DNA of 63,145 nucleotides, filler included, from Globobulimina sp. (Eukaryota): the NCBI GenBank assembly GCA_003354225.1. It is 16 parts of 16 records of this genome, joined end to end, with 100 filler letters (N's around TTAATTAATTAA, not from the genome) between each part and the next. Parts side by side here need not be neighbours in the genome. Positions count along the whole stretch, not along the records: positions 27,686 to 31,538 come from PIVH01001989.1; 15 more parts are not named here. One strand, written 5' to 3'. The notes below the pieces were generated by a model that saw only the letters and a program-made list of their open reading frames with translations, was not told where the DNA came from and did not search any database. The translations under genes and the position numbers were made by a program. Shown here in pieces: positions 502 through 47,348 of the stretch. Every line of letters starts with the position of its first letter. Position 1 is the stretch's first letter.

Positions 502-534
502 TAATTAAGTGTGAAAAACTCGTAGTTTGGTTCA

Positions 535-2649
535 ATGGCAGATTTAGATCTAAAATTGCAACTATCACTTTCAAATCGTTCAAGTAATTCAAATAAATTT
601 TTCACCCCAATCCCATCGCCAATAAAAAAGAAATTATTTTATACGCGATTACCGGATTATAAATTTGATAAAAGAGTGAGTTTCCTTCCATCATTTCAGA
701 ATACACTATCCGATAAAAAGAAATTAACAGCAGAAAAATTAAAAAAATGTGAAGCACTGCAACGAATCACATTGATTTTGACCAAATATCAAAAATGGAT
801 CAGGAAAAAAAAATGCATTGTCCAAAAATGGGATGACGACAGCGACTCCGATGAAGATTCAGATGAAGACAGTGACTCAGATTCAAGTTCTGATGACGAC
901 CAAATGAGTGATGAAGAACATATGAATTTGGCCATATTTCAACAAATGGCGTATGGCAACAGTTCCATGATGCGCAAAATCAAAGAAAATCAGGTTTATA
1001 ACTGGATCAACAAACATTTGAGTAAAAATTACAGCGAATCCCGGCTATTGGAGGATTACTTGCATTTATTAAACGAGCACGTCGATGAATTTGAGCAGAT
1101 TCATAAACATTTATGTGCTGCACTTGATAAACAGGTAAAAACCGATGACAATTTCAAGGGAACCTACATTCAATACACCTCAAAGCAAGAGGCTTCCTTC
1201 AACATTGAGATTAATATCGAACAGTTATTGAATGAGATACAACTATATTTTGGTGGTATATTTGATGTGGCCTTTTTTCATCAAAAATATAGAGTGCTCA
1301 AACAAATTGGTTCCGGCATCGAAGGCGATGTTCACAAAGTTAAGCTACGCACAAAATTTGATTCTTTCATTCTCGAAGACGACGCCGACGAGAAAGCACA
1401 AAGTAGCTCTGATGAGGAGGAGGAGGATGACGATGGATATTACTATGCAGCGAAAACCATAAAATATAATGAACGGACGATGAATAATTACCGCGTGATG
1501 GGCAAGTTTGAGATCTTGGATGATTTTGAAATGTATTTAGATAAAAAAAAGGATAAATTAATCTTAGTCTCGGAATGGTGGCACTGGGACATCTTTGATT
1601 ATATGCGGAAATACAACAAAGTTTTTAGTGAGACACAATTGCATAAAATGATGAGCTTTTATATATTGCCGTTGCTAATGAAGTTGCATTCGAATTGTTA
1701 TATTCATGGCGATATTAAGCCGAATAATTTTGTAGTGAACATTCTGAATGAAGACGAAAATGAATATGGTTTGATTGATTTTGGTACAATGTTGAAAATG
1801 AATGAATTGTCGGAAACAGTGCGAAGTGGTTTGTGTGGGTCAATGGGTTACTATGCGCCCGAAATATTATTTTTAATGTACGACGGCCCCGTTAAGATTG
1901 ACGCAAAAGTTGATATTTGGGCGTTGGGATTGACTTTTATTTATTTGTTGAGTGGGTGGCATCCGCTGATGAACGATGACTTGAATATTTTGGGGGAAAG
2001 GAAAATAAAAATGAAAATTGAGAAATGTTTGGCTCAAATGCGAAAAAGTAATAAAATATCGCAGCATTTGAAAGAATTATTGTTGAATATGTTGGAAATT
2101 CAACCATTGAAAAGATTTAATTTGTATCAGATTTTGAATGATAAATGGATCACAAAGAAAGAAAATGAGATCGAATCGATATTGTTTTTGGATATTGATG
2201 GCGTTTTAAATGATAATAAATCGAAAGCAAAAACAATGAGACCAGAATTAATTATGAAATTAAAAAAAATTATCAATTTGAGTCAGTGTCACATTGTGTT
2301 GAGTTCATCATGGCGGCGGGTACCTGAATTAAAGAGAAAATTTAAAAAACAATTCAATAAAATTGCGAGGATTAATATTGATGCAATATATGTTGGTGAT
2401 ACACCGTTTAATGGTAAAAACCCAACGCGAGTTCATGAATTAATGGAATATTTCGAAAAAAATGAAGCAAAAATAGCTGATGATGTTAAATGGGTTGTTG
2501 TTGATGACATGGATTTGATCAATGAAGATGTAGCATTTTCAAATCAATGTAAAGCATTTTTAGATGGACATTGGGTACAAACCGATATTCAAACTGGTTT
2601 AACAAATGAAAATGTACAAGAAATCATATCAATTTTGAACCGTGAATGA
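535..2649 (+). CDS. Ser/Thr protein kinase fused to a C-terminal HAD phosphatase domain (Swiss Army Knife RNA-repair HAD type)
   Basis: Kinase motifs IGSGIEGDV, AAK, HGDIKPNN, DFG, APE, DIWALG. C-terminal HAD motifs ILFLDIDGVLN, IVLSSSWR, GDTP, WVVVDDMDL, QTD..GLT. Confidence 0.85.
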   Translation: MADLDLKLQLSLSNRSSNSNKFFTPIPSPIKKKLFYTRLPDYKFDKRVSFLPSFQNTLSDKKKLTAEKLKKCEALQRITLILTKYQKWIRKKKCIVQKWDDDSDSDEDSDEDSDSDSSSDDDQMSDEEHMNLAIFQQMAYGNSSMMRKIKENQVYNWINKHLSKNYSESRLLEDYLHLLNEHVDEFEQIHKHLCAALDKQVKTDDNFKGTYIQYTSKQEASFNIEINIEQLLNEIQLYFGGIFDVAFFHQKYRVLKQIGSGIEGDVHKVKLRTKFDSFILEDDADEKAQSSSDEEEEDDDGYYYAAKTIKYNERTMNNYRVMGKFEILDDFEMYLDKKKDKLILVSEWWHWDIFDYMRKYNKVFSETQLHKMMSFYILPLLMKLHSNCYIHGDIKPNNFVVNILNEDENEYGLIDFGTMLKMNELSETVRSGLCGSMGYYAPEILFLMYDGPVKIDAKVDIWALGLTFIYLLSGWHPLMNDDLNILGERKIKMKIEKCLAQMRKSNKISQHLKELLLNMLEIQPLKRFNLYQILNDKWITKKENEIESILFLDIDGVLNDNKSKAKTMRPELIMKLKKIINLSQCHIVLSSSWRRVPELKRKFKKQFNKIARINIDAIYVGDTPFNGKNPTRVHELMEYFEKNEAKIADDVKWVVVDDMDLINEDVAFSNQCKAFLDGHWVQTDIQTGLTNENVQEIISILNRE

Positions 2650-15823: not shown

Positions 15824-18800
15824 AATATTACATACTTTGACAGTATAATATTGATTATATGCCACGTTTTCAACTTTTGCGCGAGTCTGTCTTTGCGAAA
15901 TTAAGTCGTGTTCATCGATTTTAATAAATCCAAACAATGCAATGAAGAAAGCAATGCAGATTGACAATGAAACAAAGCACAATATGTATAATGAGCGAAT
16001 ATCCACTTCAAACGCAGTTATTGTGACCAAAATAATGATTAAAAATCCAAACCAAAGTGCCATAGCGACGATCTGTCTTACTTTCTGAGGACATTTAGAG
16101 CAGACAACGGCAAAGATTTCGATAAAACCAGCGGCCGGCAATAAAATACCAAATACTAAAGAAGTAACTGCAAATTTATACGTTTTCCACATAAAAAAGA
16201 GATTAAAAAGCTGATATAAATCACGCCATATTTTGGACACTTCAGCCTTTGCTATTTCATATGCTAAGTTCAACGTCATTTGCTTTTTTCCTCTCTTCTT
16301 CCCACCATCAACCAACGCAGAAATAAACTCAAATATGCGAACTAAAGTAAGTAAAATCAACAGTGTACACATCAGCAATCCCAATAAAGCTAATAAATCC
16401 TGTAGAATATCCTGAAAATGCGCCAACATTATCTGCTTGAAACCAAATCGTAAATGCGATCGTCTGACATAATATTTGAATTTCAATAAATTATATATAT
16501 TCAAAAACGGGATTATATAAATGGTCAACAATAACACCGCAATATAATAGAGCACAGTGTACAAAACCGTAATATCACGGCCCTCATAAATCACGCCATC
16601 AAATAGAAATGGTAAAGCCATTAAAAATGCAATGCCGCCAAAAAGAATCATAATCATAACGTCTACGATTGCTTTGTACACAAAAAAGCGTATAATTCTT
16701 TGACTCGTCGATAAATTCTTGGAAAATATCGCACATTTCACGTTTCTAAATTGTTTCGATTGTGCAGCAGCTTCGTCATGCGATTCATGGATAGTATGAT
16801 ATAAATGAATCATTTGTTGCTTCATTGTCCTTTGTTGGCAATGTAATTGTTCGCTGAAAATCGCCTGATGCTCCCATTTCAGTTGATTTTGTAAGGTTAA
16901 CATATTTGATTTTGACTGCATAACCTTTAAATACAAGCGAATATTTTGAATCTCAAATAATTCTGTCACCAATTGTTGGTTTGCTGGTTTTGGTTTGATG
17001 TCACGCCGTAAAATTCGCAATGCAGTCCGGACCACAAAATCATAGCAGTTTGGACCTAATGAGACAAAGTTTAAGTATTTCATATTAATATCATCATCGA
17101 TACCAGCTTCAATATTGTGTTCTATCTGCAATTCGTTTTGATATTCATTCCAATGTTGGTTAATTTTATCGCACCATTTCCTATATTCACTGTTATTATG
17201 TGCATTGTTAACTTGTTTTTGTGAATATCGTAATTTAACCATATCATTTAACATTGGCTCGAACAATAAATCATACAATTTCGTGTAAATAAAGTAAGAA
17301 TATTCGACAATACCAATTACGTACGATTCTCGTTTGAGATTCCAAAATGTTTCATGTGATAACAAATAATATAAACATTGGACGAGTCTCCATGGAATAA
17401 TTAATAAAATACAAAATAACATTAAGTGCGCGATGTCAATCAACCATTTAACAAATTCCATTGCCACAATCACCCAAAACATATCTACGATTCCTTTATG
17501 TTCAGTTCCTCGAATTTGATTAATTTCATCCAGTCTTAACCCAAAATTCTTATTTTTCTGCAATGGATGAATACCATCCTCACTCATTGCACAATCCATT
17601 AAATCCTGAATCGAAACCGCAATGATCCACAGTATGCCTTTTGTATCGTGTTCTAATTGGAATATAAATTGACGTTCAGGATCAGGAAACTTCCCTAAAT
17701 TGGATAAAATGGTGGTTCTCTTTCCAATAAATGCTTGGATCATAAATGGAACATCACTTAAATTTGTAGCCAGATCGTCCACCAAATCATAATTTAATCC
17801 ATTTGAAGTTCCATGATTTAGCCCACTTTTTAGATTAATACCATGCCTTAATTTGTTAGGTAACATTGAACGGCCCGCAGTGGCAATAGCAGCGCCAAAA
17901 ACGTGTTCAACATCGTTCCAAAAAGCATCACCAAGCACAAATAATCTCAAACAACTTTTCTTTGCGGCATCATTATCCAACGCAAAATGCAATGTTTTTG
18001 AACCTTTATTGATCCAAATCCGCGGTTTGCCCTTTTCTTGAAACTCTAATGAAGCTTCTTCGACAGCAATATTTATTGTATCGTGTACTGAGGTTCTGGG
18101 TATTCGAAGCTTTGATAAAATGGTTAATATCAACAGTGGCAAACGGAATAATGTGACAGCAATAATTGCAAATGGTATTAAAAATAATATATCACGTATT
18201 AGATATATAAATTGTAGGAATGAATGCTTTCGGAATTCGCTTGCTGTCAACGTTGATGTATCATTTGTGATAATGTTATACATCTTAAATGCGCGCCATA
18301 TGGTTACAAATACAATAAAACATAAAACAGCGCATGGAATATCAATAAATACGAAGCATGCTGTGACCATAATATCTTTTCTTTGCCTATATATTGCTCG
18401 ATATTCTTCCATGTAATCATCAGCTGTATCAATATCTGTATCTGCAGTTAAAATATTCCATAAATATGGTATACGATAAAGCGTGATACAAATTATAATG
18501 ACTGCGAGTAATAAAAATAAAACATCACATAATATAATTAATGCATTCATACAAATGTGAATACGACAGTTTTCTGGTGCTTTCTTCTCGCCATTTTCAT
18601 CATTTTTTGGTATCAATGTTTTTTCTTCCTCGCACGACCCGTAATTTTTGAGCGTAGAATGTAACTTCACATCAGGAAGAATACCGCGATTGCGGTTAAA
18701 ATAATACACTTCCCAGCTAAATCTGCAATGTTTGTATAACGGCGGCAATCTATACACTGTAACTACAATAATTACGGTCAACGGTAACATGAATAAAATA

Positions 18801-19677
18801 TCAAACAGCAAAACACAAAAATTAAATAATACTCTCTTTCGGATTAAATTCATTCTGTCCTCATCGAATTGTTTGGCGTCTTTCATCAAATGATAGATGT
18901 CGACGCCTTGATATCCGCTCAAAAAACAAATAATCAGCAATGGGACAAACAATATATCAATTAATAAGAATGAAAAATGTTTAATTATGCGGATTCTTAA
19001 TTTTATATTGTAATCAAGTTTATATTGCGTCAATATCACGTCTCGCTTTTCTACGGCATCAGCATAATAACTCTGTATCGCTTTGATTAAGGGATAGGTT
19101 CTAATGCAGGTACAAAACACGACGATGGCAGCAATAAAACAAACTAAATCCACAATGCTTAAAAGCAAATTAATACAAACTGCAATTCGCAACTTGTCAT
19201 ATTTATCTTCTTTGTATTCGGTGCTATATTTAAAATACAATTTAATTAATTCCGGTATCCGAACCACAAAAATAAAGGACAGCAATGCAACAATAATCAA
19301 AACCACAAAATCTAGCAATCCTAAATAAAAGTTCTTTATTCCAACGAATCTATATGCAAAATTATACTCCAATCCTTGGAATTTTATTACAGTTTCATTT
19401 CTTAAATGCGGTGAACTATTATAAATATCAGACAATTGTGTCACAAATAAATAAGTTCTGGTAGGTAAGAAGAGTGCTAAAATGCAGTGTGGAATGGCAA
19501 TTATATCAAACAATGCCAAAGCAAAATTTAATAAAAGTGCTAACCGTAATTCACAATAACGATCCCTTAATGTAGTACAGACGAAGTTGTTTAAGATAGT
19601 TGTTTCTCAACAAACGTTTCTGCGATGTTGATGCGAAAAATAATAATATATTTATACCTTAAATAACTGTCCCAATT
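15824..19677 (-). CDS. Very large polytopic membrane protein with repeated hydrophobic-hairpin units, partial at both ends
   Basis: More than 1230 open codons; at least 9 units resembling L-D-(I/V)-LF..P..II..T.YR; probable intron near 19567-19657. Confidence 0.8.
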
Positions 19678-20657: not shown

Positions 20658-21080
20658 TTAACCATAATTAGTTCGATATTTGAGACTTGAGTAAGTGCTT
20701 AGGTTTTCTTTGTGCAAATTTCTAGAAACAGGTATAGTGCCACAATAGTTACAAAATTGCAATTGAATTATTATTGGTTGTTGTAAAATTTTAGGGAACT
20801 TAGAAAAAACAAAGGGGGGAGAAGTAGAGTATTTTATTATTGTTATCAGATTACACTGAGATAAATTCTCAAATTGTATATCTGTAAAAATAAAATGGTC
20901 TCTGGCTTCATTAACATCAATCACAGAGAAAAAAGCAAGGCACAATTTAATAACAACTAAACAAAAAACCAAGAAACTTAAATGAGATAATAATAAAAAG
21001 GAATAAAATAAATTAGTATATATAATACAAATCGGAGCTTGACTGGTTGCTAATTGTTTGATAGATAACTTTTTAATCAT
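20658..21080 (-). CDS. Hydrophobic intermediate ORF between ORF1 and the endonuclease
   Basis: Its ATG overlaps the ORF1 stop (ATGA); 140 codons with an N-terminal hydrophobic stretch. Confidence 0.4.
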   Translation of the reverse strand: MIKKLSIKQLATSQAPICIIYTNLFYSFLLLSHLSFLVFCLVVIKLCLAFFSVIDVNEARDHFIFTDIQFENLSQCNLITIIKYSTSPPFVFSKFPKILQQPIIIQLQFCNYCGTIPVSRNLHKENLSTYSSLKYRTNYG

Positions 21081-23631
21081 TGGGTTTGCTTACGTTTAAG
21101 GGGGAGTTTGGATGGTCTTTTTGTTGGATTTTTCTCCTTTCTTTTTGGCCGTTTATTCTTAAATGGCAATAAATTGGTGGAATTATTCTGATTGGCCGAC
21201 TTTCTTAACTTTTCACTTTGCATATTTACACGGAATGTCTCTGCATTTTTATTTCTTCTTTTTACGTATTTTGGCATTTTTGGGGATATTTGCACAGAGT
21301 GTAATATTTGAGGAGGACGGGGTTTACGTTGGCGTTGGATATTATTGTTGTTATTTGATGCCATTGGCGGTCCATCATCGAAGCTATAAATTTCTGCGTT
21401 GAATCTCGGGGTTTTTGGATTATCATTCATATCGGTTGTCTGGTTATCGTTCGTTGTGGATAGATTTGCAAAGTTGTTGGTGAATTCTTGTTCCTTTTTA
21501 CTGGCATTAATCTCGTTATTGATGGCTTTTAATAATCCATTATCAATATATGGATTTGCATTGATTGGTAAAATCTGATTGGTGGATAATGGTTGTTTTT
21601 GAGTGTCGCTTTCATTCGCTGGCAATTCAATGTGTTTAGCTTCAGTAAATTCGAGATTTGGCGAACTATCAAAGTCTTCCGCCACTAATCCATGGTTTAA
21701 TAGCATTGCATCGGCTGATGACAATGTAGTGGTTGGTACTGAGTTGTTGTTATTGTTGTCATTCTTCATTGGAACTATAGGTTTATTATCATTGTTGTTT
21801 GTGTTTTTATTATTATTATGCCGGGCCATTTCGTTATAATTCTCTTGTTTTCTTTCTTTTTCATTCTGATTGGTTGTGTCTAATATAACTTGGTTGCTCG
21901 CATTTGTGTCAATGACTTTGTATAACTCCGATAGTTTTAATTGATTTGTTAATGTACAATGGATCAATTTATAATGATCAATATTCTCTAAATTAATATT
22001 GTTCCAATTTGTAATAATATTATCTAAATTTTCAAATAATTTTATCAAATTGAACGAATCTGAGCAAATCCATATATTTAATGTCCGAATATGGCGGGAA
22101 CAGTGGCAGCATAAACACGTTGACTCTTCGCATTTGCATTGATTTATAAAATGGCCAAAATGTCCACATTTGATGCATTTGACAGATATTATTTTATTCA
22201 TCTCAATCTCCGCTTGCTTTTGTGATATTTTTCCTTTTTTACATCTTTGTTTGATCGCATTTATTCTTTTCTTGATATAATTAGCCTGTTCTGGGCATTT
22301 ACAATGACCGGAAAATTTCTTCCCGCAAACACAGGTTGGCGCTGTCGCAACAAATTCGTAATATAAATTATTTCGCAATAAAATCATATATTTATCAATT
22401 GTGCCAAATGGGAATTTCATCGCGGGGTAATTTAATAAGTCATCACCAACAATCAATTTCGGATTAATACCTTTCATAATGATAGGAGTGACAAAAACGT
22501 TTTTATTATCGTAGTATAGGTCCGTTTTGAATGCTTTCTCAATACTTTGGACGCAATCATCAGCAGCAACAAAATCAATCATTCTCTTCCAACTTTCCAT
22601 TTTTATCCATCGCGGTATTTCTAATTCGCAGCCCGTCTCATTACTCATTTGGAATAGCATATTTTTGCACCATTGTCTATTTTTAATCACATTCGTTAAT
22701 ATAACATCCTCTGCTTTGACTGCATACTTATTAATTAATTTTATTATATTGGCACATTGCGAATGAATATCATTTGTTAACTCTTCAAACCATAGATCCG
22801 CATTCTCTGAGTCATCACTTTGCGATTCCGGTTTGTCGGATTTATCTTCTTTCATCGGACTTGGATCGGATTTCTCTTTATTTAATTCTAATTGCGCCAA
22901 TTTGAGCCGTTCTAATTTGATTTGTTGAGGGTTTATTAACGCCGTTATCAGCGGAATATAATCAATTTTCGTCATATCATAATCACATTGCATGGCACTC
23001 TTAATTGTAAACAGGAGAAATGTCGAATGGATATTATCTTTGATTTTGTTTGTAATAATGCTATTTAACGAATTATTGTTTAAAATCATTAATGGGATAT
23101 TGAACATGCACATATTTGTCGGCCGCCATATTAGGCTCTTTTTAATGTAATTTATTTCCAAATCATTGTGTTCAAAACGAGGGGGAGGAATATCCCAATT
23201 TAGGTCCATTAATACCGACTCTGTGCTGGAACCTACGATGGGGTCTAAATGGAGCATTCTTTTGTCATTTAATATAATCGTCGAAGGAATTAAATGGCGA
23301 ATAACTAGGCGATGGATAGGATGCGTTGTATTTGCATTTTGATATATTAATTTAATCGCTTTCTGGTAATCGGGGTTCTTTCCACTGATTAGATTCTGGA
23401 ATCTGTATGTTGGGGAATATACATTTAACGAATTCGATGAAACCTGGACATTACTAATATTGCACTCATTTTCTAATCGCCAGACATCTTTGAAATCACT
23501 CAAATTCGCCGCTTCCTTCTTCAAATCAATTTTATCGATACGACAGTCCCATATTTCGTCGTTTTTAATTTTATATTTGATGCAGGCACCAGTTCTTTTT
23601 ATATTTTTTATCTGTTCAGCAACGACTGCAG
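21077..23631 (-). CDS. Retrotransposon ORF1 (gag-like) with zinc knuckles, 5'-partial
   Basis: CIKCGHFGHFINQC fits CX2CX4HX4C; flanking Cys/His clusters; basic C-terminus; frame open to the contig edge. Confidence 0.72.
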
Positions 23632-27238: not shown

Positions 27239-28224
27239 ATTTAATTCATATTTGCTGTTGTCTTGTAATCATATCTTTCATTTTGTATTTAATGCAGTGA
27301 AATATAGTTGTCAATGGTTTATGGGAACTGCCCTCGATTGCAGCATCCACTCCATGTCATCAAATTGCTTTTTGTTGCTTTTCATGTCAATATTATCCAG
27401 TTTGTAATTTATGTTCAGTTAAAGCACTAAAAGGTTTTTTATGATGATTTCTGAGCAACAATGAAATATTCATTATTTATGGTAAACTAATGATAAGTTT
27501 ATAAGAATGCGGTTGAATGATCATTTAATCCTTCATTATGTTGTTTGGTTAATTGTTGTATTGCATTATTTAATGCTTTTTTTATNNNNNNNNNNNNNNN
27601 NNNNNNNNNNNNNNNNNNNNNNNNNNNNNTTAATTAATTAANNNNNNNNNNNNNNNNNNNNNNNNNNNNNNNNNNNNNNNNNNNNTTATAAAGAATGAGT
27701 TAATAATTTATTATAATGAAAGAAAAGCAGAAACAAGAACATTATTGGATAATTGTAAAAAATTAACTTTTGCGATTTGTATGTATGAAAAGAATAACGA
27801 GATAGAAATCACAAATTATGAATTTTTGTAAAATAAAAACTTAATTTTGGCGGACTTTTGTTAAAAATTAAGGCATTGTAATATTTGGTTAAAAAAGTTT
27901 TATTCACTCTCTTTTCAAACCTATTCGATAGTATTTACCAAAATAAAAACGTTTTTCAGATCTTTATTGGGGAAGGTAGAAGCAAACCGTTTCTTGTATT
28001 GTTATATAGTTAAAGTAGTAATTATGATCATGTGTATTAGACAGTTTTCTGTTTTCCACCAAGTACCCAGTACCCCGGCATTTTTCTAGTATAAGTAAGA
28101 TATTCAAAAAAATATTTAACCGCTGTGCGTTAGTGACGGTAGCGATCGCAGTTGGACGAAAAATATTGTACCCACTCACAAAAGAAATATATAATAAAAA
28201 AGGGCATTCTAGTTTTAATTGTCA

Positions 28225-30966
28225 TTATTTTTGTGCATTTGCAATACATTCTAGTATTTTTGATTTGAATTTTCCATTATTACTATGTTGATATGCGGTC
28301 TTATTATCATAACAATTATTTGATTCATGTTGAATATATTTTACTCTTTGATTTGAATCAGTAATATAACTCAACAAAATCTCAACACATTGAATAGTTG
28401 CATTTGAATGTGATATGGATAAAGCACAATATATTAAAGGAGTGAATCCCTTCTTATCAACATCCAAAATCAGTTGCATCCGAAATGTATAATCAATATT
28501 TGCCAATAAAGTGTCAACAGCTTTTGCATTTCCTTTAAAACAACATAGCATTAACGGTGTGTTACATCCATTGTTATCTTTCATTGTCAGCAATTGCATA
28601 CTGTCTATATTTTCATTATGTGTCCATTCCATTATATATTTAATAATGTCAATTTGCGAATAATTACAAGCAGAAACCAATGGAATATAACCATTTTCAT
28701 CTTTAACCTACAAACAAATATTCATTACACACGATATGAAAAGGAAAAGGAAATTAATTTATATATACCTGCAACAAACGTGTTTTCTCTTCGATTGTTT
28801 TATTTTGCATCTGTTTTAAATACCATTTTAAAAATTGCATATTGCCATTCTGACTCACAAAATGTAACGAATGTTTACCGCGCATTTTATATTTGTCATG
28901 GAAATGTATCATTAATTTTGGATGAGTCTCGCATAAAAAGTTGATTATATTTATCGAATTTGCATTTAAAGCTTCACCAATCGGACTCCACTCTTCCTCT
29001 GTTTTGTCATTTAATTGCAATGCATTTGTAAACTGCTCCTTTGTTAACAATGTTTGTAATAATTTCAGCGATTTAATATGATCAAATTCACATATTTTAT
29101 TCATTAGCGTCTTGCCAGATTTCTGGTGTGATACTAATAATTGATTTGCTTTTACATCGTATGTGACAATTAAGTTCAACATTGATTTCCTGTGCCCAGT
29201 GCACGCATAGTTGAATAATTGGCTTTGTACATCCAATAAAAATGGAGCAATATCCACATAATTTTCGCGAATAAACGCTTGCCTTCGAAATATGTCATAA
29301 TATTTATGTGAGCCAATTTTGAATGTTTCCATCAATGATAGCAAAATTTGGATTTCTCCCACCATTCCAACATTATTCCCAACATCAATTACAACATTAA
29401 ATTTAATGTCGGAATATTTTGGCTTTGAATCGATAAAATCCGTCGAATTCCAACCATTTTTGCATCGGACAACTTTTTTAATACAGGTTTTCTGCGAATT
29501 TATAACATCTATAAACATTCTGATCCCTTTCATCATCGATGGCAAATCATTAAACGTCAAACTGCACCGATTTATATCCAATAAATGTGCCGCCGTTGGA
29601 AATTCTTCATTGACATATTTATGTTCAATCTTAGCAATGCAACGTTTAATCAATTTAATTGGCCCTCTTTTATACCGCACTTTGATGCCATTATCATTCG
29701 CAACTATCTCTTGCATGATACTTTCAACCGCACTCTGAAACTGTTCATCCACAATGCTTCCCCGAAAAAATAATTTATTCAAATACTGACTCAAATCATA
29801 ATGATTTATCGGATTGAAATTGGTATAATACGGCTTATTGCGAAGTAACTCCTTTTTGGTGTATTCAGCTTTGATGCCATTCTCAATCTCATCCTGTCGG
29901 ATAATCGACACTTTATTAGCACCCATTGGATTTTCACAATTATTCACCTGGAATTTCTTCAATTCCCTCCATAACAAACTATGCTCTTTTTTCATGCGAT
30001 TGATACTGGACAGCAGCACAGCTCTCGATAACTTATCATTTGCTTTCTCCGCGCCAATGAACAACTCGTTAAACAGTGTCCGAGTGCTGTCGTGTTCGTA
30101 GGTACTCAGCCAAAGAGTGGATGGTATCAAATAATGTTGCAACCACGACCAAGCTCTTGCGTTTGTGGTGTCGTTCACAATTCTGCTGTACGTTGCTAAT
30201 AACAACTGGAACAACGCAGAGTTGATTGGTTTCTTATTCTGTGTTTTGATGTGATTCCAAGCAATGTGCATCATATCGTCGCTGAAAGGCAACTGTTTGT
30301 CGACACAGTGCATCATCAAAGCAACAATGCCATCCAATGCGTCTGCCTCTAAATTATCCAACGCACACTGCGTAGCTCCATTTTGTTTGTGGAGGATATC
30401 AATTTTTTTCTGCACTTCTGGGCCTAACGCAGTGCCTAAATCTTCAAACTGTAACAACTGTGCAATATGATAATTTGCCCATTTTTCAGCATAATTCAGC
30501 GCAGAACACTTGTTGCCAAAAATACAGGATTTCATCAACAAAGTCATGTTTTTGTGTCTGGTGTCTGTTTGTTCCAAATTGATATCAGTTTTGGTGATTA
30601 AATCTTTGATGTGATTGATATTATGAGTCCGCAAGGAATGATCTATTTGTTCCCAAATAAATTTTTGCTGCTTAGTAATGTTTTGGTTTGGTTGATTGTT
30701 TGGTGATGGATTTGGCTGTTTTTCGTCATCGTTAATCTCGTCAGACATGTTTTTCCTTTGTTTCTCCGATTTATAGCGTTGCAGTTCGGCTTTAACAGCT
30801 TTTAATTCGTGTCGTAACATTCTATTTTCTTCTTCTAATTGTTTACTTATCAAAGCCTTTGTTATGTGTATCAATATTAGTATCTGGCAGTATTAAACAC
30901 ATTCTGTTGTGGTACCTGGATGTGGCTGTTTGCATAGCGAGTACTTGTTGCTGTTTGTAACGCCAT
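28225..30966 (-). CDS. Ankyrin-repeat protein with a central RelA/SpoT-like nucleotidyltransferase domain; introns 30857-30915 and 28708-28768
   Basis: RGPIK..RC.AK, LLDINRCS, VRCKN, YSDIKFNV, GEIQI, SHKYYDIFR. Ankyrin motifs TLLMKSC, SLHFVSQNG, TPLMLCC..GN, FTPLIYCA. Both introns are phase-0 GT-AG. Confidence 0.8.
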
Positions 30967-31017
30967 GATTCACAAGCAAACGATCTTCAAATACTCGAAA
31001 AGCTTTTTTTGCAAAAG

Positions 31018-31538
31018 ATGGCAGATGTTTCTAGTGAAATAAGTGATTGCGTGTGCAACAGCTTTGATTTCCCTCCAACACTTAAATACCACATATTGGA
31101 AGGTCATGCGCCAAGGCAATATTATTATTTTTGGATCATAGGAACAATTTGTTGCGTCATATCCGCATTTATAATGATTCCAAGAATAAAAGAAATACAC
31201 AACGAAGCATCACTACTCAGAGAAAAAATGGATACTGCATTGCTACCGTATGCATATCAAATAGTGTCGATACTGCTGACATTTCCGTTAATCGGTGCAT
31301 TTTTTAATGAATTGGTATTGCTCGCACCAATAACACACGATGTGTTTGTATTTATATTAAACTTATACAATGCAATAACTTTATACGTATTTGCTCGTTT
31401 AGTAATAATGTACCTCGGATCGTATAAATCCGCTATGAATGCCTGGCGAAAGGAATCGACCAAACCCACCAAATATTATGCATCCAAACCATGCTGTTGT
31501 TTGTCGATATGCATCAAAGAAAGAAAAATAAATAAAAA
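31018..31538 (+). CDS. Organic solute transporter alpha/TMEM184 family, 3'-partial
   Basis: TM helices with IL..FP, Y.A..LY.F..L..MYLG and a PCCC motif. Confidence 0.7.
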
Positions 31539-44074: not shown

Positions 44075-47000
44075 ATGTGGTTGCTGTGTATACCAGTAAT
44101 TTTGTTTGGGAATGTATTATCAACAGACGTTAATTTAAATCAATTGTATACCGTTAACACCACGTTATTATCGTCAACAACATATAATGTAATTAATGAT
44201 ATCGTAATCAGTGAAAATGTATTTGTGACTGTCCAAGACAGTGTAACCATTATATTCAAAGGAGATTTCTCAATATCAGTCTATGGCCATTTAATAATGG
44301 GATGTGATGCAGTAAACACTTTGAATGACCATACCATTGGGATTTCATCCGCAGCCCAAACCATATTTGTTTATAATAATAACACTGCGACTAAACAAGG
44401 TCGAATATCAATTGCATCGTATGGATCAGGGTTTTTTTGTAATGTTAAATTCAGCCATCTGTATTATGCAATAGATATAAATGCAAATTATGGTGATTAT
44501 AAAGTGGATAATTGTGAGTTTTATAATAATTATTATGGAATTGTTGGAAGAGCTTATACAAATATTGACATACAACGTGGTATAACAGATAGCAATTTTT
44601 CATTCAATCAACAGTATGATATATATTTTGCATATCAGGTAAATATTACAAATAATTTATTTAATGGCAATGCATATAGATCCATATATTCATATCAGTA
44701 TTGCAACATACATAACAACACATTTATTGCTTCAAATACTGTACAATGTGCTATATATGTCCGATATGACACAAATTATATCACATTTAATACATTTTAC
44801 AATTTCCCATCTTATGCAATTCAAACATATGCTTCTAATATACACTTTACTTCATATATATTATACAATACATTTATTAATAATAATATTGTTGTTAGTA
44901 TTCAAGGTTCTGCACTCATAGCCATACATTATAATAATTTCATTAATAATTCAATCAGCATTGAGTTGACAGCAAATGTGAACGAACCAAATTGTAGTTA
45001 TAATTATTACGGCACAGCATCAACAAATCAATCTATTGTATCACAGCAAATTGTTGATATTTGTGCTGGGGAATCCGGAGGTATGTTCTTAAGGACGTTA
45101 ACAAATATTTTTTAAAATGATCCAAATTACATTTTTAGTGTTGTTCAACTTTATATTGTGCCAATATAGTGAATATAGACATTTTTTTTGAACAATAACT
45201 AGCGTTTCTAAGATTCCATTTTTTTTTTGCAAGAAACATTATTAAAATGAAATTCCGATCCACTAACTCCATTCATTACATTCACATTCTTAATAACAAA
45301 GGTTTAATAACATGGTGGCCGTGGTACATTGAGGCGATTCCTATCACCGCATTGCCAATAACATATCCGATGGAAGCAACATTTAGCACATTAGAATGCG
45401 TTGGACCTGATAATCACCCTCAGATTATTGGTAATAGATTAAGTGTATTATATTTGCAAAATATTACATTAACTTCAGCTAATTCACCATATTATGTTGT
45501 AAATCATGTATGGTTGCAAGATGGCGTTACAATGACAGTACAACATTCTGTTACAATCATATTTGTTGCTGATTATACTTTCAATGTAAGGGGCCATTTA
45601 ATAATGGGATGTGATGCAGTAAACACTTTGAATGACCATACAATTGGGATTTCATCCGCAGCCCAAACAATATTTGTTTATAATAATAATACTGCGACTA
45701 AACAAGGTCAAATATCAATTGCGTCGTATGGATTAGGATTTTTTTGTAATGTTAAATTCAGCCATCTGTATTATGCAATAAATACACATGCACATTTTGG
45801 TGATTATAATGTGGATAATTGTGAATTTTACAATAATCTTTATGCAATTTATGGGGGAGGTTATACAATTGACATAGGTCGAATAACAGATAGTAATTTT
45901 TCATTCAATCGGGAAGATATACATTATGCAGATCGGGTAAATATTACAAATAACTTATTCGTAGGTAGTGAATCCAGATCCATATATTCATCCCAATATT
46001 GCAACATACATAACAACACTTTTATAGCTTCCAATACTTCAATAGATGGTCTATATGTTCGATATGAAGCACATATTACATTTAATACATTTATTAATTT
46101 CCCATCTTATGCAATCCAAACAGGCTCAAATGCCTTTACTTCATATATATTTTACAATACATTTATTGATAATAATATTGCTGTCAATATTCAAACTTCT
46201 TCGATAACACCAATACATTATAATAATTTCATTAATAATTCTTACAATATTGCATTATTCAGCGACAGCAATCAACCAAACTGTTCTCATAATTGGAATG
46301 GTATTGTCAATAATATCACTGATCCGAAGCAAACAGCGAATAAAATGTTGCATTTTTGCAGTGGCAGTGAATATAATGGAATCATAACATTTTGGCCATA
46401 TTTTGCAGCTCCACTATTTTTGAATGAATTGTCGAATTTGCCTGCTTTGTACACATTTAATTTTTCAGACTGTTCATCCATAAATCAAGCTGGAACAGCC
46501 ATTTTAGTGCCAAATCAACCAACGCGTTCACCCACATTTGCTCCTTCCATTCCATCAATAAATCCAACATTGACACCCACCGTTTATCCAACTCCGTCAC
46601 CGACACAGATTCCAACCAAAAGTCCATCAAAAACACCAACTAAATCACCAACCAATACAACACAGAATCCATCAAATAATCCAACATTAAATCCAATAAC
46701 ATCTGTGTCTCCAACTAAAGCACCAACAATTTCACCGTCTAATAATCCGACTTCATTTCCATCCCTATCACCAACAATAAATCCAACCAAAACTCCAACC
46801 CCTTCACCAACAACTAATCCATCAATGCATCCAACAAATCATCCAACAAATCATCCAACTAATTCACCAACAACTAAGTCACCAACAACGGAGCAACCCA
46901 CAGATAATCCATCCTATTATTCCAATATCACAACACCGCAACCCACAAATAATCCAATTATAGCTGGACCACCAACTCCTTCGCCAACACAGAATCCATC

Positions 47001-47348
47001 AAATAATCCAACCTCTATTCCGAGCACAAAGTCGCCCACAAACAGTCCAACCACAATACGGAGAGCTTTCCGCTTTCGATGCTTTTATAATGATAGAAAG
47101 ATAAATTATTATTCCATTTATATGACATTGCCACAGTACGCGGACTTACTGATAAATGCGACATTATCCTCCATTGAGTCCATCACATTTTCATCCACCA
47201 ACTATGAGGAAACACAAATGAATCAACGTGCTGCTTGGAAAAGAGGTGGAATTTCTCATTTTGAGATTTGTTCTATTTTTACGAGTGTTGATTTAAAACA
47301 AAATTGTTCAGCTTACCAAGAAGACTCAGATTCTGATGAAAAGGATGT
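44075..47348 (+). CDS. Secreted parallel beta-helix protein with internal duplication and PT-repeat stalk; intron 45081-45301; 3'-partial
   Basis: Signal peptide MWLLCIPVILFGNVLS; repeated I.NN.F / N.F.NN; the intron joins the two ORFs in frame; PTxxP repeats at about 46520-47055. Confidence 0.85.

Follow-up and report, generated by a model that had tools for sequence, protein, structure and literature searches.

To our knowledge, synthetases of the RelA/SpoT-homologue (RSH) superfamily are poorly known beyond bacteria and plastids; Metazoa have only the hydrolase Mesh1, and (p)ppGpp synthesis in the eukaryotic cytosol has no established enzyme. Among the bacterial groups, the RelV/VpEAS proteins are small alarmone synthetases of Vibrionaceae, now termed exported alarmone synthetases (EAS). 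RelV is a single-domain protein of about 258 amino acids with a signal-peptide-like N-terminus, and (p)ppGpp synthesis is reported for it and its relative VpEAS (PMC12691689). The same account reports that SaEAS makes both alarmones and that Tas1 makes (p)ppApp (PMC12691689). SaEAS (PDB 8vx3) and Tas1/Apk1 (PDB 6ox6) are secreted or injected bacterial enzymes that lack ankyrin and helical modules. RelP, RelQ and the long RSH enzymes (RelA, SpoT and Rel) belong to Pfam PF04607, and tRNA-targeting toxSAS enzymes have also been described (PMC11245113).

Two groups of eukaryotic proteins resemble the protein described below. The nearest precedent comes from fungal NLRs that have a RelA_SpoT effector domain. 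In these proteins, whose families are expanded and variable, an RSH-type domain of non-plastid type is recognised by PF04607, lies N-terminal to a NACHT or NB-ARC NTPase, is combined with ANK, WD40 or TPR repeats, and has been proposed as the direct effector of the sensor (Dyrka et al., 2014; PMC4986451). The divRel proteins of Dictyostelium, Aspergillus, Gibberella and diatoms are unplaced eukaryotic proteins with a synthetase domain and no paired hydrolase domain, proposed to have arisen by transfer from bacteria (Atkinson et al., 2011; PMC3153485). The words "ankyrin", "Rhizaria" and "protist" are absent from the paper's main text, and the relevant parts of the two accounts (PMC3153485, PMC4986451) describe no assay of the divRel proteins or the fungal NLR effectors.

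The window analysed here is a 63,145-nucleotide stretch of DNA from Globobulimina sp., assembled from 16 unrelated contigs of about 3.85 kb each with N/TTAATTAATTAA linkers between them. On the contig at 27686-31538, a spliced gene on the minus strand (28225-30966) encodes a multidomain protein whose central domain belongs, as a very divergent representative, to the RSH synthetase superfamily, with its nearest detected relatives in the RelV/exported-alarmone-synthetase group of bacteria. From the N-terminus, a probable coiled coil is followed by an ankyrin pair, then by a conserved helical domain and the RSH-type synthetase (SYNTH) domain, with ankyrin repeats at the C-terminal end. A divergently oriented membrane-protein-like gene is its sole neighbour on the contig, and a family HMM run over the whole window matched nothing besides this gene.

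The coding region comprises three exons with 873 codons followed by TAA, and the only stop in the 2622-nt spliced coding sequence is the terminal one. Exon 1 (30916-30966) holds the ATG and 16 further codons, and its reading (..YANSH..) runs on into exon 2 as in the homologue P0004. Exon 2 (28769-30856, 696 codons) encodes everything from the coiled coil to the first C-terminal ankyrins, and exon 3 (28225-28707, 160 codons plus TAA) encodes further ankyrin repeats and the tail. Both introns begin with GT and end with AG: intron 1 (30857-30915, 59 nt) is absent from contigs of the public sequencing runs X2 and X4, and intron 2 (28708-28768, 61 nt) from those of X1, X2 and X4. In these contigs, which come from studies P1 (X1 and X2) and P3 (X4), the segments are removed exactly, with CT..AC ends on the plus strand, and a contig of X2 continues past the intron 1 joint from 30915 to 30993; run X3 (study P2) retains both segments. 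No library type is recorded for these runs, so we can only infer that the joined contigs represent RNA. The 873-residue product aligns unbroken over both junctions to the homologues P0003 (58.5% identity, 892 columns) and P0004. The exact removal of both introns in contigs from two studies bears out an earlier sequence-only reading of this DNA, which had called the gene spliced, with two GT-AG introns, and nuclear.

That reading had also placed a coiled coil and an ankyrin fragment at the N-terminus. The coiled-coil-like stretch (30752-30856, residues 1-35 of the exon 2 product) is a heptad-like, charged sequence that gave weak matches to coiled-coil families only in Pfam (RILP, E 0.055; Rab11-FIP3, E 0.47). 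The ankyrin element stands as a pair (30437-30670), since residues 4-81 of the predicted model match ankyrin structures with Z scores of 5.4-7.3, and a profile of the whole family searched against the PDB retrieved ankyrin chains only. It is not a true fragment: it looks like one because 60 nt (20 codons) are missing from the window between 30511 and 30512. Contigs of all four runs carry these 60 letters and skip none of the window at this site, X3 having both forms, and homologues have about 20 extra ankyrin residues here. The C-terminal helical and ankyrin region (28228-29131) is split by intron 2, with a weak Ank_3 match at residues 660-683 of the exon 2 product (E 0.0048) and strong ankyrins in exon 3 (Ank_2, E 8.2e-18; Ank, E 7.6e-11), in agreement with the C-terminal ankyrins that had been proposed. 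The PADLOC model PDC-M72A matched 10 of 52 family members, a match assumed to reflect the ankyrin part.

Between the ankyrin pair and the SYNTH domain lies an all-helical domain (29954-30433, model residues 83-242) with the motifs PFSDDMMHIAW and WSWL..YLIPSTLWL. It is conserved throughout the family and modelled with block pLDDT values mostly of 79-98, and it has no assigned fold: Foldseek returned no structural relative at E<=0.001, and VIA-align returned only cullin/HEAT-like bundles at Z <=6.4. A degenerate HD hydrolase domain is conceivable at this position, N-terminal to SYNTH; no Pfam HD family matches there. Neither a TGS nor an ACT/RRM domain follows SYNTH, where Pfam gives ankyrin repeats only; the absence of HD, TGS and ACT domains noted from the sequence thus holds as far as Pfam matches go. 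No hydrophobic stretch is visible by eye at the N-terminus, which is followed by the coiled coil, so the export signal of exported alarmone synthetases appears to be lacking. Pfam detected no NACHT, NB-ARC or other P-loop family in the window protein or in nine family members. Likewise, neither NACHT nor NB-ARC appeared among the 25 families listed of 49 for 40 members or the 25 listed of 55 for 52 members, the sole P-loop exception among those listed being a weak AAA_24 match (E 0.0065) in one of the 52.

The SYNTH-like domain (29285-29824) was modelled by AlphaFold2 with a pLDDT of 92.2, and the predicted structure has the SYNTH fold known from RelP, RelQ and Rel, with helices on the flanks of a central mixed beta-sheet. 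Foldseek returned 46 PDB matches at E<=0.001 (best 5.2e-6); among the matches listed, all are RSH synthetases, including RelP, RelQ, exported small alarmone synthetases, Rel, RelA, SpoT, CapRel, Tas1 and annotated GTP pyrophosphokinases. In a VIA-align comparison with 48,161 chains, ranks 1-8 all went to RSH synthetases over 136-166 aligned residues (Z 12.2, 11.7, 11.7, 11.2, 10.5, 10.2, 9.9 and 9.3), ahead of the best non-RSH structures, pol-beta-type transferases at Z <=8.4. The top match is SaEAS (Z 12.2, rmsd 3.7, 162 residues). RelP, RelQ and the long RSH enzymes share the fold (Z 9.3-11.7; Foldseek E 5e-6 to 6e-4) and have the same order of secondary structures and catalytic motifs. Both searches thus place the model with RSH synthetases ahead of all other nucleotidyltransferases. 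Among the checks suggested beforehand, structural comparison upheld the Rel-type nucleotidyltransferase fold, whereas a search for PF04607 gave no match.

Six active-site motifs occur in the order GPIKLIKRCIAK, LDINRCS, RCKN, YSDIKFNV, EIQ and HKYY at 29297-29665, within a 246-residue domain. All had been recognised from the sequence in this order (at about 29280-29780), and their proposed mapping onto the RSH set is essentially right. In domain numbering, they read G69-P-x-K72-xxx-R76-xxx-K80, D98-x-x-R101, R135-x-K137-N138, Y152-x-D154-x-K156-x-N158, E172-x-Q174 and H188..Y191. In an alignment of the query and 141 homologues picked by similarity to it, D98, R101, N138 and D154 are invariant (142/142 each), as is E172 (139/139), and K72 (138/139), R76 (138/140), K80 (139/140), K137 (141/142) and Q174 (135/139) are nearly so. 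The motifs are not due to chance: conservation at these positions extends over 142 homologous domains, and they align to the RelV family.

The acidic residues fall where catalysis would require them. D98 aligns with an Asp of RelV, which in turn aligns with the DxxGxR Asp of Bacillus subtilis RelP/YwaC; E172-x-Q174 aligns with the ExQ of RelV and RelP, and K72, R76 and K80 with their equivalents in both. By this alignment, they correspond to the SYNTH hallmarks of a catalytic Asp before strand 2, a Glu-x-Gln on the last strand and a basic R/K cluster for the ATP phosphates. In SaEAS, the residues named as active-site or ATP-binding are D121, R124, K154, N169, E182 and Q184 (PMC12691689). Judged by spacing rather than by a tool alignment, D98, R101, K137, N158, E172 and Q174 appear to parallel this set in order and spacing; D121/R124 has the same DxxR spacing as D98/R101. 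Compared with canonical RSH enzymes, DxxR replaces DxxGxR, YxDxK replaces GYxSxH and KNG[FW] replaces PKxNGY. Given the changes to DxxGxR and GYxSxH, the substrate or chemistry may differ.

Sequence comparison connects the domain to RSH synthetases only indirectly. PF04607 was matched neither by the window protein (E<=1) nor by nine (E<=10) or 52 family members (E<=5), and it was not among the 25 families listed of 49 for 40 members (E<=0.01). NCBIfam likewise gave nothing for the central domain, nor did PADLOC. Applied to 27 bacterial domains of PF04607 type, the family HMM (142 sequences) singled out one real sequence, a Vibrionaceae RelV-type open reading frame (L116) whose 41.1 bits were reached by none of 1350 shuffles. 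The RelV/VpEAS group is also the sole bacterial RSH group with a significant profile match: hhalign aligned query residues 16-195 with a 48-sequence RelV alignment over 153 columns (98.0%, E 2.2e-13). The RelV profile itself matched a diverse RSH (PF04607) profile (98.1%, E 1.1e-13). In a PDB search, L116 found Tas1 as its best match (3e-7), followed by RelP (3.3e-4, 3.7e-3), and a further RelV-type open reading frame, L193, scored 28.2 bits against PF04607 (cut-off 27) and 44.7 bits against the family HMM. The two families share the motifs K-xxx-R-xxx-K, D-x-x-R, K-N, Y-x-D, E-x-Q and H..Y. In contrast to RelV, the window protein is a spliced, 873-residue, multidomain eukaryotic protein with a non-hydrophobic N-terminus, 19% identical to RelV over the aligned columns.

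Direct comparisons were not significant. Profiles of E. coli RelA and SpoT, of 20 long RSH enzymes and of mixed small alarmone synthetases and long RSH enzymes gave hhalign probabilities of 0.1-0.3% against the family, and a joint family-plus-RelV profile reached only 10.6% (E 0.0029). The domain profile reached Tas1 alone in the PDB, at motif 1 and without significance (E 2.8), and neither SaEAS nor Tas1 gave a significant direct sequence match. A single row for tankyrase in a single-sequence PDB search (E 1.5) was judged a chance match. In a word-index search, the domain alignment gained short eukaryotic fragments only and no named bacterial RSH. In a language-model Atlas, the clusters closest to the domain bore the name of one Pfam family only, PF04607 (score 0.92; 14 of 30 named-cluster matches). 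These clusters are eukaryotic; of the few members for which a record exists, diatoms form the commonest phylum, which is a lead only. On sequence evidence, the domain is homologous to RSH synthetases through a two-step chain, from the family to RelV and from RelV to the RSH superfamily, direct comparison being not significant. Relative to RelP, RelQ and the long RSH enzymes, it thus combines the same fold with no detectable direct sequence similarity, the altered DxxR and YxDxK motifs and no HD, TGS or ACT domain.

The family is large, with at least 591 representative clusters (50% identity) at E<=0.001. A species name was found for 18 of 30 proteins looked up, and all 18 are foraminiferal and uncharacterised, annotated as "hypothetical protein", "Uncharacterized protein" or "Ankyrin repeat-containing protein". 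The homologues come from foraminiferal transcriptomes and the Reticulomyxa filosa genome, and paralogues bear RCC1, WD40, ZZ or C1 modules beside the ankyrins or in their place. No paper on this family was found in open-access full text or bioRxiv, and the annotations of the named members give no sign of a family already characterised under another activity. The closest non-eukaryotic relatives occur in Vibrionaceae and other Pseudomonadota, some of these bacterial relatives having no Pfam match at all. RelV-type open reading frames were present in 121 of 151 Vibrionaceae genomes searched; with a single RelV protein as query, one of 201 sampled Gammaproteobacteria matched, namely RelV itself. 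A scan of 185,579 prokaryotic species genomes gave 32 pattern matches and no relative, which is weak evidence of absence because it relied on two peptide patterns only.

In their eukaryotic, apparently synthetase-only state, the family members are like divRel proteins, and the association of an RSH-type domain with repeats in a diversified family recalls the fungal NLRs. The window family differs from the latter in that no NOD module was detected, SYNTH is central and follows a private helical domain, PF04607 does not recognise it, and the named members are foraminifera (Rhizaria). It also departs from toxSAS modules, in which a bacterial operon includes an adjacent antitoxin or immunity gene; here the gene is spliced and eukaryotic, and its neighbour is the divergent membrane-protein-like gene.

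The protein, with its divergent RSH synthetase domain, is most likely a regulated nucleotide pyrophosphokinase (probability about 0.6). This reading builds on the fold of the predicted model, the two-step homology to RSH synthetases and the conserved catalytic residues, all three shown above. The SYNTH domain would be an active pyrophosphokinase in a probably cytosolic protein. With ATP-Mg bound through K72/R76/K80, D98/R101, K137/N158 and E172/Q174, it would pass the beta,gamma-pyrophosphate to the 3'-OH of a purine nucleotide, and the product would be (p)ppGpp and/or (p)ppApp. On binding a protein or ligand, the ankyrin repeats and the helical domain may restrain the enzyme or set it free. 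The earlier reading had likewise proposed an alarmone-synthetase-type domain, which the analysis supports, in an enzyme that may be cytosolic, coupled to a sensor and involved in defence or stress signalling.

The RSH fold could instead have been kept for another activity or for none: the nucleotidyl or pyrophosphoryl group might go to a protein, a sugar-nucleotide or some different small molecule, or the domain might serve a scaffold protein as its nucleotide-binding regulatory module. The non-canonical acceptor-side motifs would suit such a role, as would the missing direct PF04607 match, the conserved neighbouring helical domain without a known fold and the fact that we know of no established enzyme for (p)ppGpp synthesis in the eukaryotic cytosol. 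A non-catalytic module is hard to reconcile, however, with a donor-ATP/Mg set (K72, R76, K80, D98, R101, E172 and Q174) that is invariant or nearly so in 142 sequences, and RelV has DxxR and Y-x-D too, yet is reported to be an active (p)ppGpp synthetase (PMC12691689). On balance, a changed or lost activity seems unlikely. We consider it distinctly improbable that the protein is a toxSAS-like switchable translation inhibitor that makes no free nucleotide messenger. One of the best structural matches is CapRel (7ztb; Z 10.2, 155 residues, model range 1-195; Foldseek E 2.3e-4), and the large number of paralogues with variable repeat modules fits the logic of a sensor coupled to a toxic effector. 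Nevertheless, the significant sequence links lead only to RelV-type proteins, which are reported (p)ppGpp makers (PMC12691689); PADLOC listed no CapRel model for 52 members; and EAS, RelP and RelQ rank above CapRel in VIA-align, a weak argument given the difference of 1-2 Z units.

The short contigs of a fragmented assembly, the 60 nt missing at 30511|30512 and the Vibrionaceae and other Pseudomonadota as nearest non-eukaryotic relatives might suggest bacterial contamination or an assembly artefact rather than a eukaryotic gene. This explanation is hardly conceivable in view of the two exactly removed introns, the foraminiferal homologues, including those of the R. filosa genome, and the eukaryote-like ankyrin, RCC1 and WD40 architectures. 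Genes typical of eukaryotes (protein kinases, the DNA primase large subunit, and fn3 with ubiquitin) lie on further contigs of the window, and the two-pattern scan of prokaryotic genomes also speaks against it. The regulated-pyrophosphokinase reading may be extended to a speculative proposal that we rate as quite unlikely: foraminifera may have recruited a bacterial RelV/EAS-like alarmone synthetase as the effector for intracellular sensors that lack a NOD module and form a large, diversifying family. On sensing a cue such as an infecting virus, an intracellular bacterium or a stress, the private helical domain and variable ANK, WD40 or RCC1 modules would unleash a very fast pyrophosphokinase, so that (p)ppGpp/(p)ppApp would flood the cytosol as a signal or ATP and GTP would be drained, as in abortive infection.

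The family, apparently expressed from spliced nuclear genes, has been overlooked by standard annotation; its complete catalytic set is strongly conserved. Coverage by PF04607 is incomplete in the RelV/EAS-like wing of the superfamily, where some bacterial relatives, too, lack any Pfam match. If active, the protein would provide a concrete enzyme for alarmone chemistry in the eukaryotic cytosol and add to the cases in which multidomain proteins of eukaryotes put a bacterial conflict or secretion enzyme to new use. Should the NOD-less-sensor proposal prove true, the family would be to eukaryotes what CapRel/toxSAS immunity is to bacteria, and a non-photosynthetic eukaryote would have a true cytosolic alarmone synthetase.

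In direct profile comparisons, the foraminiferal family of the central domain encoded by the minus-strand gene at 28225-30966 gave no significant match to E. coli RelA plus SpoT, to 20 long domains of RelA/SpoT homologues (RSH), or to a mixed profile of 27 domains of the Pfam RelA_SpoT type (PF04607; probability 0.3%). The last of these alignments, itself non-significant, placed K72, K80, and D98 (numbering of the 246-aa middle part) on the expected RSH residues. When the family HMM, built from 142 domains, was scored against the 27 domains and 1350 shuffled versions, the sole real sequence standing out was L116, with a score of 41.1 bits against 6.1 for the best shuffle; 0 of the 1350 reached 41.1. 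L116, an open reading frame (ORF) of 258 aa in a Vibrio genome (L116:1186-1959, plus strand), is a small alarmone synthetase of the RelV type. It scores 24.1 bits with PF04607, slightly under the cut-off of 27, and its PDB matches are Tas1 (3e-7) and RelP (3.3e-4 and 3.7e-3). Relatives occur in 121 of the 151 Vibrionaceae genomes searched; among 201 sampled Gammaproteobacteria, only L116 itself was recovered. A profile of 48 RelV-type sequences matched both the foraminiferal family (hhalign, 98.0%, E 2.2e-13, 153 columns) and the mixed RSH profile (98.1%, E 1.1e-13). Therefore, with direct comparisons having failed, these two profile matches establish at the sequence level that the family is homologous to the RSH synthetase superfamily, through the RelV wing only.

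Used to search 401 Pseudomonadota genomes, the family alignment returned four matches: two RelV-type ORFs and two longer ones, L195:1411-2640 (plus strand, 410 aa) and L196:1318-2508 (minus strand, 397 aa), which score 44 and 26 bits with the family HMM. L193, one of the two RelV-type ORFs, scores 28.2 bits with PF04607, above the cut-off. L195 and L196 share the motifs Y-K-D-[VI]-K-F and E-L-Q-L, have no Pfam match at E<=0.001 (two chance-level rows, E about 0.1), and appear to be bacterial members of the RSH superfamily's RelV/Tas1-like wing that lack annotation. Sec signal peptides are present on RelV and VpEAS, which produce (p)ppGpp only and halt bacterial growth when retained in the cytoplasm, according to a 2025 mBio article (PMC12691689); the hydrophobic, signal-peptide-like N-terminus of L116 is consistent with the export described there.

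The predicted structure agrees with the RSH-type fold proposed in the sequence-only reading. AlphaFold2, given a 52-row alignment, produced a confident model of the central domain (pLDDT 92.2, pTM 0.79), with a predicted order of helix, strand, helix, strand, helix, three strands, and a long helix. Foldseek searches of the PDB with this model gave 46 matches at E<=0.001 (best E 5.2e-6), and those listed are RSH synthetases throughout, comprising RelP, RelQ, the Streptomyces exported SAS, Rel, RelA, SpoT, CapRel, Tas1, and annotated GTP pyrophosphokinases. VIA-align, a fold search independent of Foldseek, likewise ranked RSH synthetases in the top eight places among 48,161 chains, with 136-166 residues of the model aligned (Z: 8vx3, 12.2; 6ewz, 11.7; 6fgk, 11.7; 5dec, 11.2; 8acu, 10.5; 7ztb, 10.2; 6ox6, 9.9; 7qps, 9.3); the best non-RSH rows were generic pol-beta-type transferases, at Z 8.4 or less. 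In a protein-language-model Atlas, the nearest clusters are eukaryotic and unnamed (score 0.95), and the sole Pfam family named among the neighbours is PF04607 (score 0.92, 14 of 30 named-cluster matches).

All six motifs reported earlier from the middle of the gene were found in the same order, at 29297-29665. The hhalign and HMMER alignments pair K72-xxx-R76-xxx-K80 with the R-x-K-xxx-S-xxx-K motif, Y152 with the Tyr of G-Y-x-S-x-H, E172-x-Q174 with E-x-Q, and H188 and Y191 with the downstream H..Y. D98 falls on the Asp of D-x-x-G-x-R, a motif that both RelV and the window family have as D-x-x-R. The proposed D/E catalytic correspondence holds. Across 142 aligned domains (the query and 141 of 150 listed matches), D98, R101, N138, and D154 are invariant (142/142 each), as is E172 (139/139), and K72 (138/139), R76 (138/140), K80 (139/140), K137 (141/142), and Q174 (135/139) are nearly so. 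The exported synthetase SaEAS (8vx3) produces both alarmones, (p)ppGpp and (p)ppApp, at a rate near 1e5 per minute, is inactive when D121A, and binds ATP through R124, K154, N169, E182, and Q184, as given in the same article (PMC12691689). Judged by order and spacing rather than by alignment, D98, R101, K137, N158, E172, and Q174 would match this set.

The gene opens with an ATG at 30966 and a 17-codon exon ending in CAG/GT, followed by a 59-nt intron (30915-30857, 3' end AG), a 696-codon exon (30856-28769), a 61-nt GT..AG intron (28768-28708), and a third exon closed by TAA (28707-28225). The spliced coding sequence of 2622 nt specifies 873 aa, and its product aligns across both junctions with the homologous proteins P0003 (58.5% over 892 columns) and P0004. 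The two GT-AG introns anticipated from sequence are skipped exactly in public contigs of two studies: the 61-nt segment is precisely absent from runs X1/X2 (one study) and X4 (a second), and the 59-nt segment from X2 and X4, the skipped ends reading CT..AC on the plus strand. Contigs of X3, from a third study, retain both segments. Similarity to the window is ~95% for the X1/X2 contigs and at least 99% for those of X4. Library types are unrecorded for these runs; we infer that the joined contigs represent mRNA, other explanations being difficult, and on that reading the gene is expressed, spliced, and eukaryotic. Because a spliced X4 contig stops at 28202, 23 nt beyond the stop codon, before Illumina-adapter-like sequence, the 3' UTR may be very short.

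In the protein as a whole, Pfam and NCBIfam detect ankyrin repeats only, strong in exon 3 (Ank_2, E 8e-18) and weak in exon 2, and neither recognises the central domain. The predicted model of the N-terminal 286 aa (pLDDT 81.6) contains an ankyrin pair at residues 4-81 (VIA-align to ankyrin structures, Z 5.4-7.3) and a confidently predicted helical domain at 83-242, for which Foldseek found nothing at E<=0.001 and VIA-align nothing convincing (Z 6.4 or below). The helical domain could conceivably be a degenerate HD domain; Pfam lists no HD family for this protein or nine family members. Ankyrin sequence at the N-terminus had been described as a fragment; the ankyrin assignment stands, and the fragmentation does not. 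Sixty letters are absent from the window between 30511 and 30512 (in exon 2, after codon N115 and before K116), equal to 20 in-frame ankyrin-repeat codons. The apparent fragment reflects a gap in this assembly or allele, since contigs of all four runs carry the 60 nt and all close homologues carry ~20 extra ankyrin-repeat residues there. X3 contigs include both short and long forms; the difference therefore stems from an allele, from a paralogue, or from collapse of the assembly. Pfam found no TGS or ACT domain, as expected, and no NACHT or NB-ARC domain in this protein or nine family members. By eye, no hydrophobic stretch is present at the N-terminus, which makes a cytosolic location likely.

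The 246-aa query (window:29132-29869, minus strand), scored against 1.84 billion representative proteins, retrieved 591 with E<=0.001; of these, 324 reach E<=1e-10 and 71 reach E<=1e-30. Thirty listed proteins were checked for origin: nine are from Bolivina argentea, seven from Nonionella stella, two from Reticulomyxa filosa (labelled 'hypothetical protein' and 'Ankyrin repeat-containing protein'), and 12 are nameless. All 18 species-named proteins are thus foraminiferal, and none is characterised, let alone with another activity. Pfam assigned ankyrin repeats to 32 of 40 members, RCC1 to three, and WD40, ZZ, and C1 to one each; among the matches listed (25 of 49 families), none covered the central domain. 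Most members share the order ankyrin pair, helical domain, central domain, with common helical-domain motifs such as PFSDD..W and W.WL..Y...S.IW. Two Nonionella stella proteins from EukProt, P0005 and P0006, are identical across the synthetase-like domain and wholly different beyond it, one tail being ankyrin repeats and the other unrelated sequence; they are either alternative isoforms or a transcriptome-assembly chimera.

The window joins 16 contigs of 3,847-3,858 bases by N runs around TTAATTAATTAA and is not one locus; the contig that holds the gene spans 27686-31538 (33% G+C), and Rfam has no match in the whole 63,145 bases. A divergent neighbour (30961-31538, plus strand; ATG near 31021) appears to encode a multi-pass membrane protein; its match to the Ostalpha solute transporter family (PF03619, E 7e-4) is weak and falls below the cut-off. 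The ~55 nt between start codons, with X2 and X4 contigs starting at 31042 and 31016, points to a bidirectional promoter region that is very short. On a separate contig, a single open frame (526-2646, plus strand) uncommonly combines a protein kinase (E 2.7e-30) with HAD_SAK_2, the 'Swiss Army Knife RNA repair' HAD (PF18143, E 1.6e-23). Long open frames at 15824-19606 (minus, 1261 aa), 21080-23629 (minus, 850 aa), and 45199-47346 (plus, 716 aa) have no Pfam match at E<=0.001.

By residue conservation, the catalytic set is intact and strongly maintained. The central domain would transfer pyrophosphate from ATP to a purine nucleotide, yielding (p)ppGpp and/or (p)ppApp, under the control of flanking ankyrin and helical modules that vary among paralogues. 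The foremost rival is another acceptor, or a non-catalytic role for the domain; behind it comes pyrophosphorylation of tRNA 3' ends, as by CapRel and FaRel2. Contamination is effectively excluded, and other window contigs encode products typical of eukaryotes (protein kinases, the large subunit of DNA primase, and a protein joining fn3 to ubiquitin).

For an alarmone synthetase-like enzyme, the closest architectural precedent is fungal NLRs, in which RelA_SpoT (PF04607) is an N-terminal effector and the repeats are ANK, WD40, or TPR, as described by Dyrka et al. (2014; PMC4986451). Atkinson et al. (2011; PMC3153485) class RelV as gamma-proteobacterial and list as divRel unplaced SYNTH-only proteins of Dictyostelium, Aspergillus, Gibberella, and two diatoms; the main text of that paper contains none of the words 'Ankyrin', 'Rhizaria', and 'protist'. 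Open-access main texts and bioRxiv yielded no account of such a domain in foraminifera or of an ankyrin-flanked RelV-like protein. The original observation is confirmed and its interpretation supported as far as computation goes: a known enzyme superfamily gains a new variant in the foraminiferal family, one that Pfam misses, that has expanded within its lineage, and whose architecture and host group are also new.
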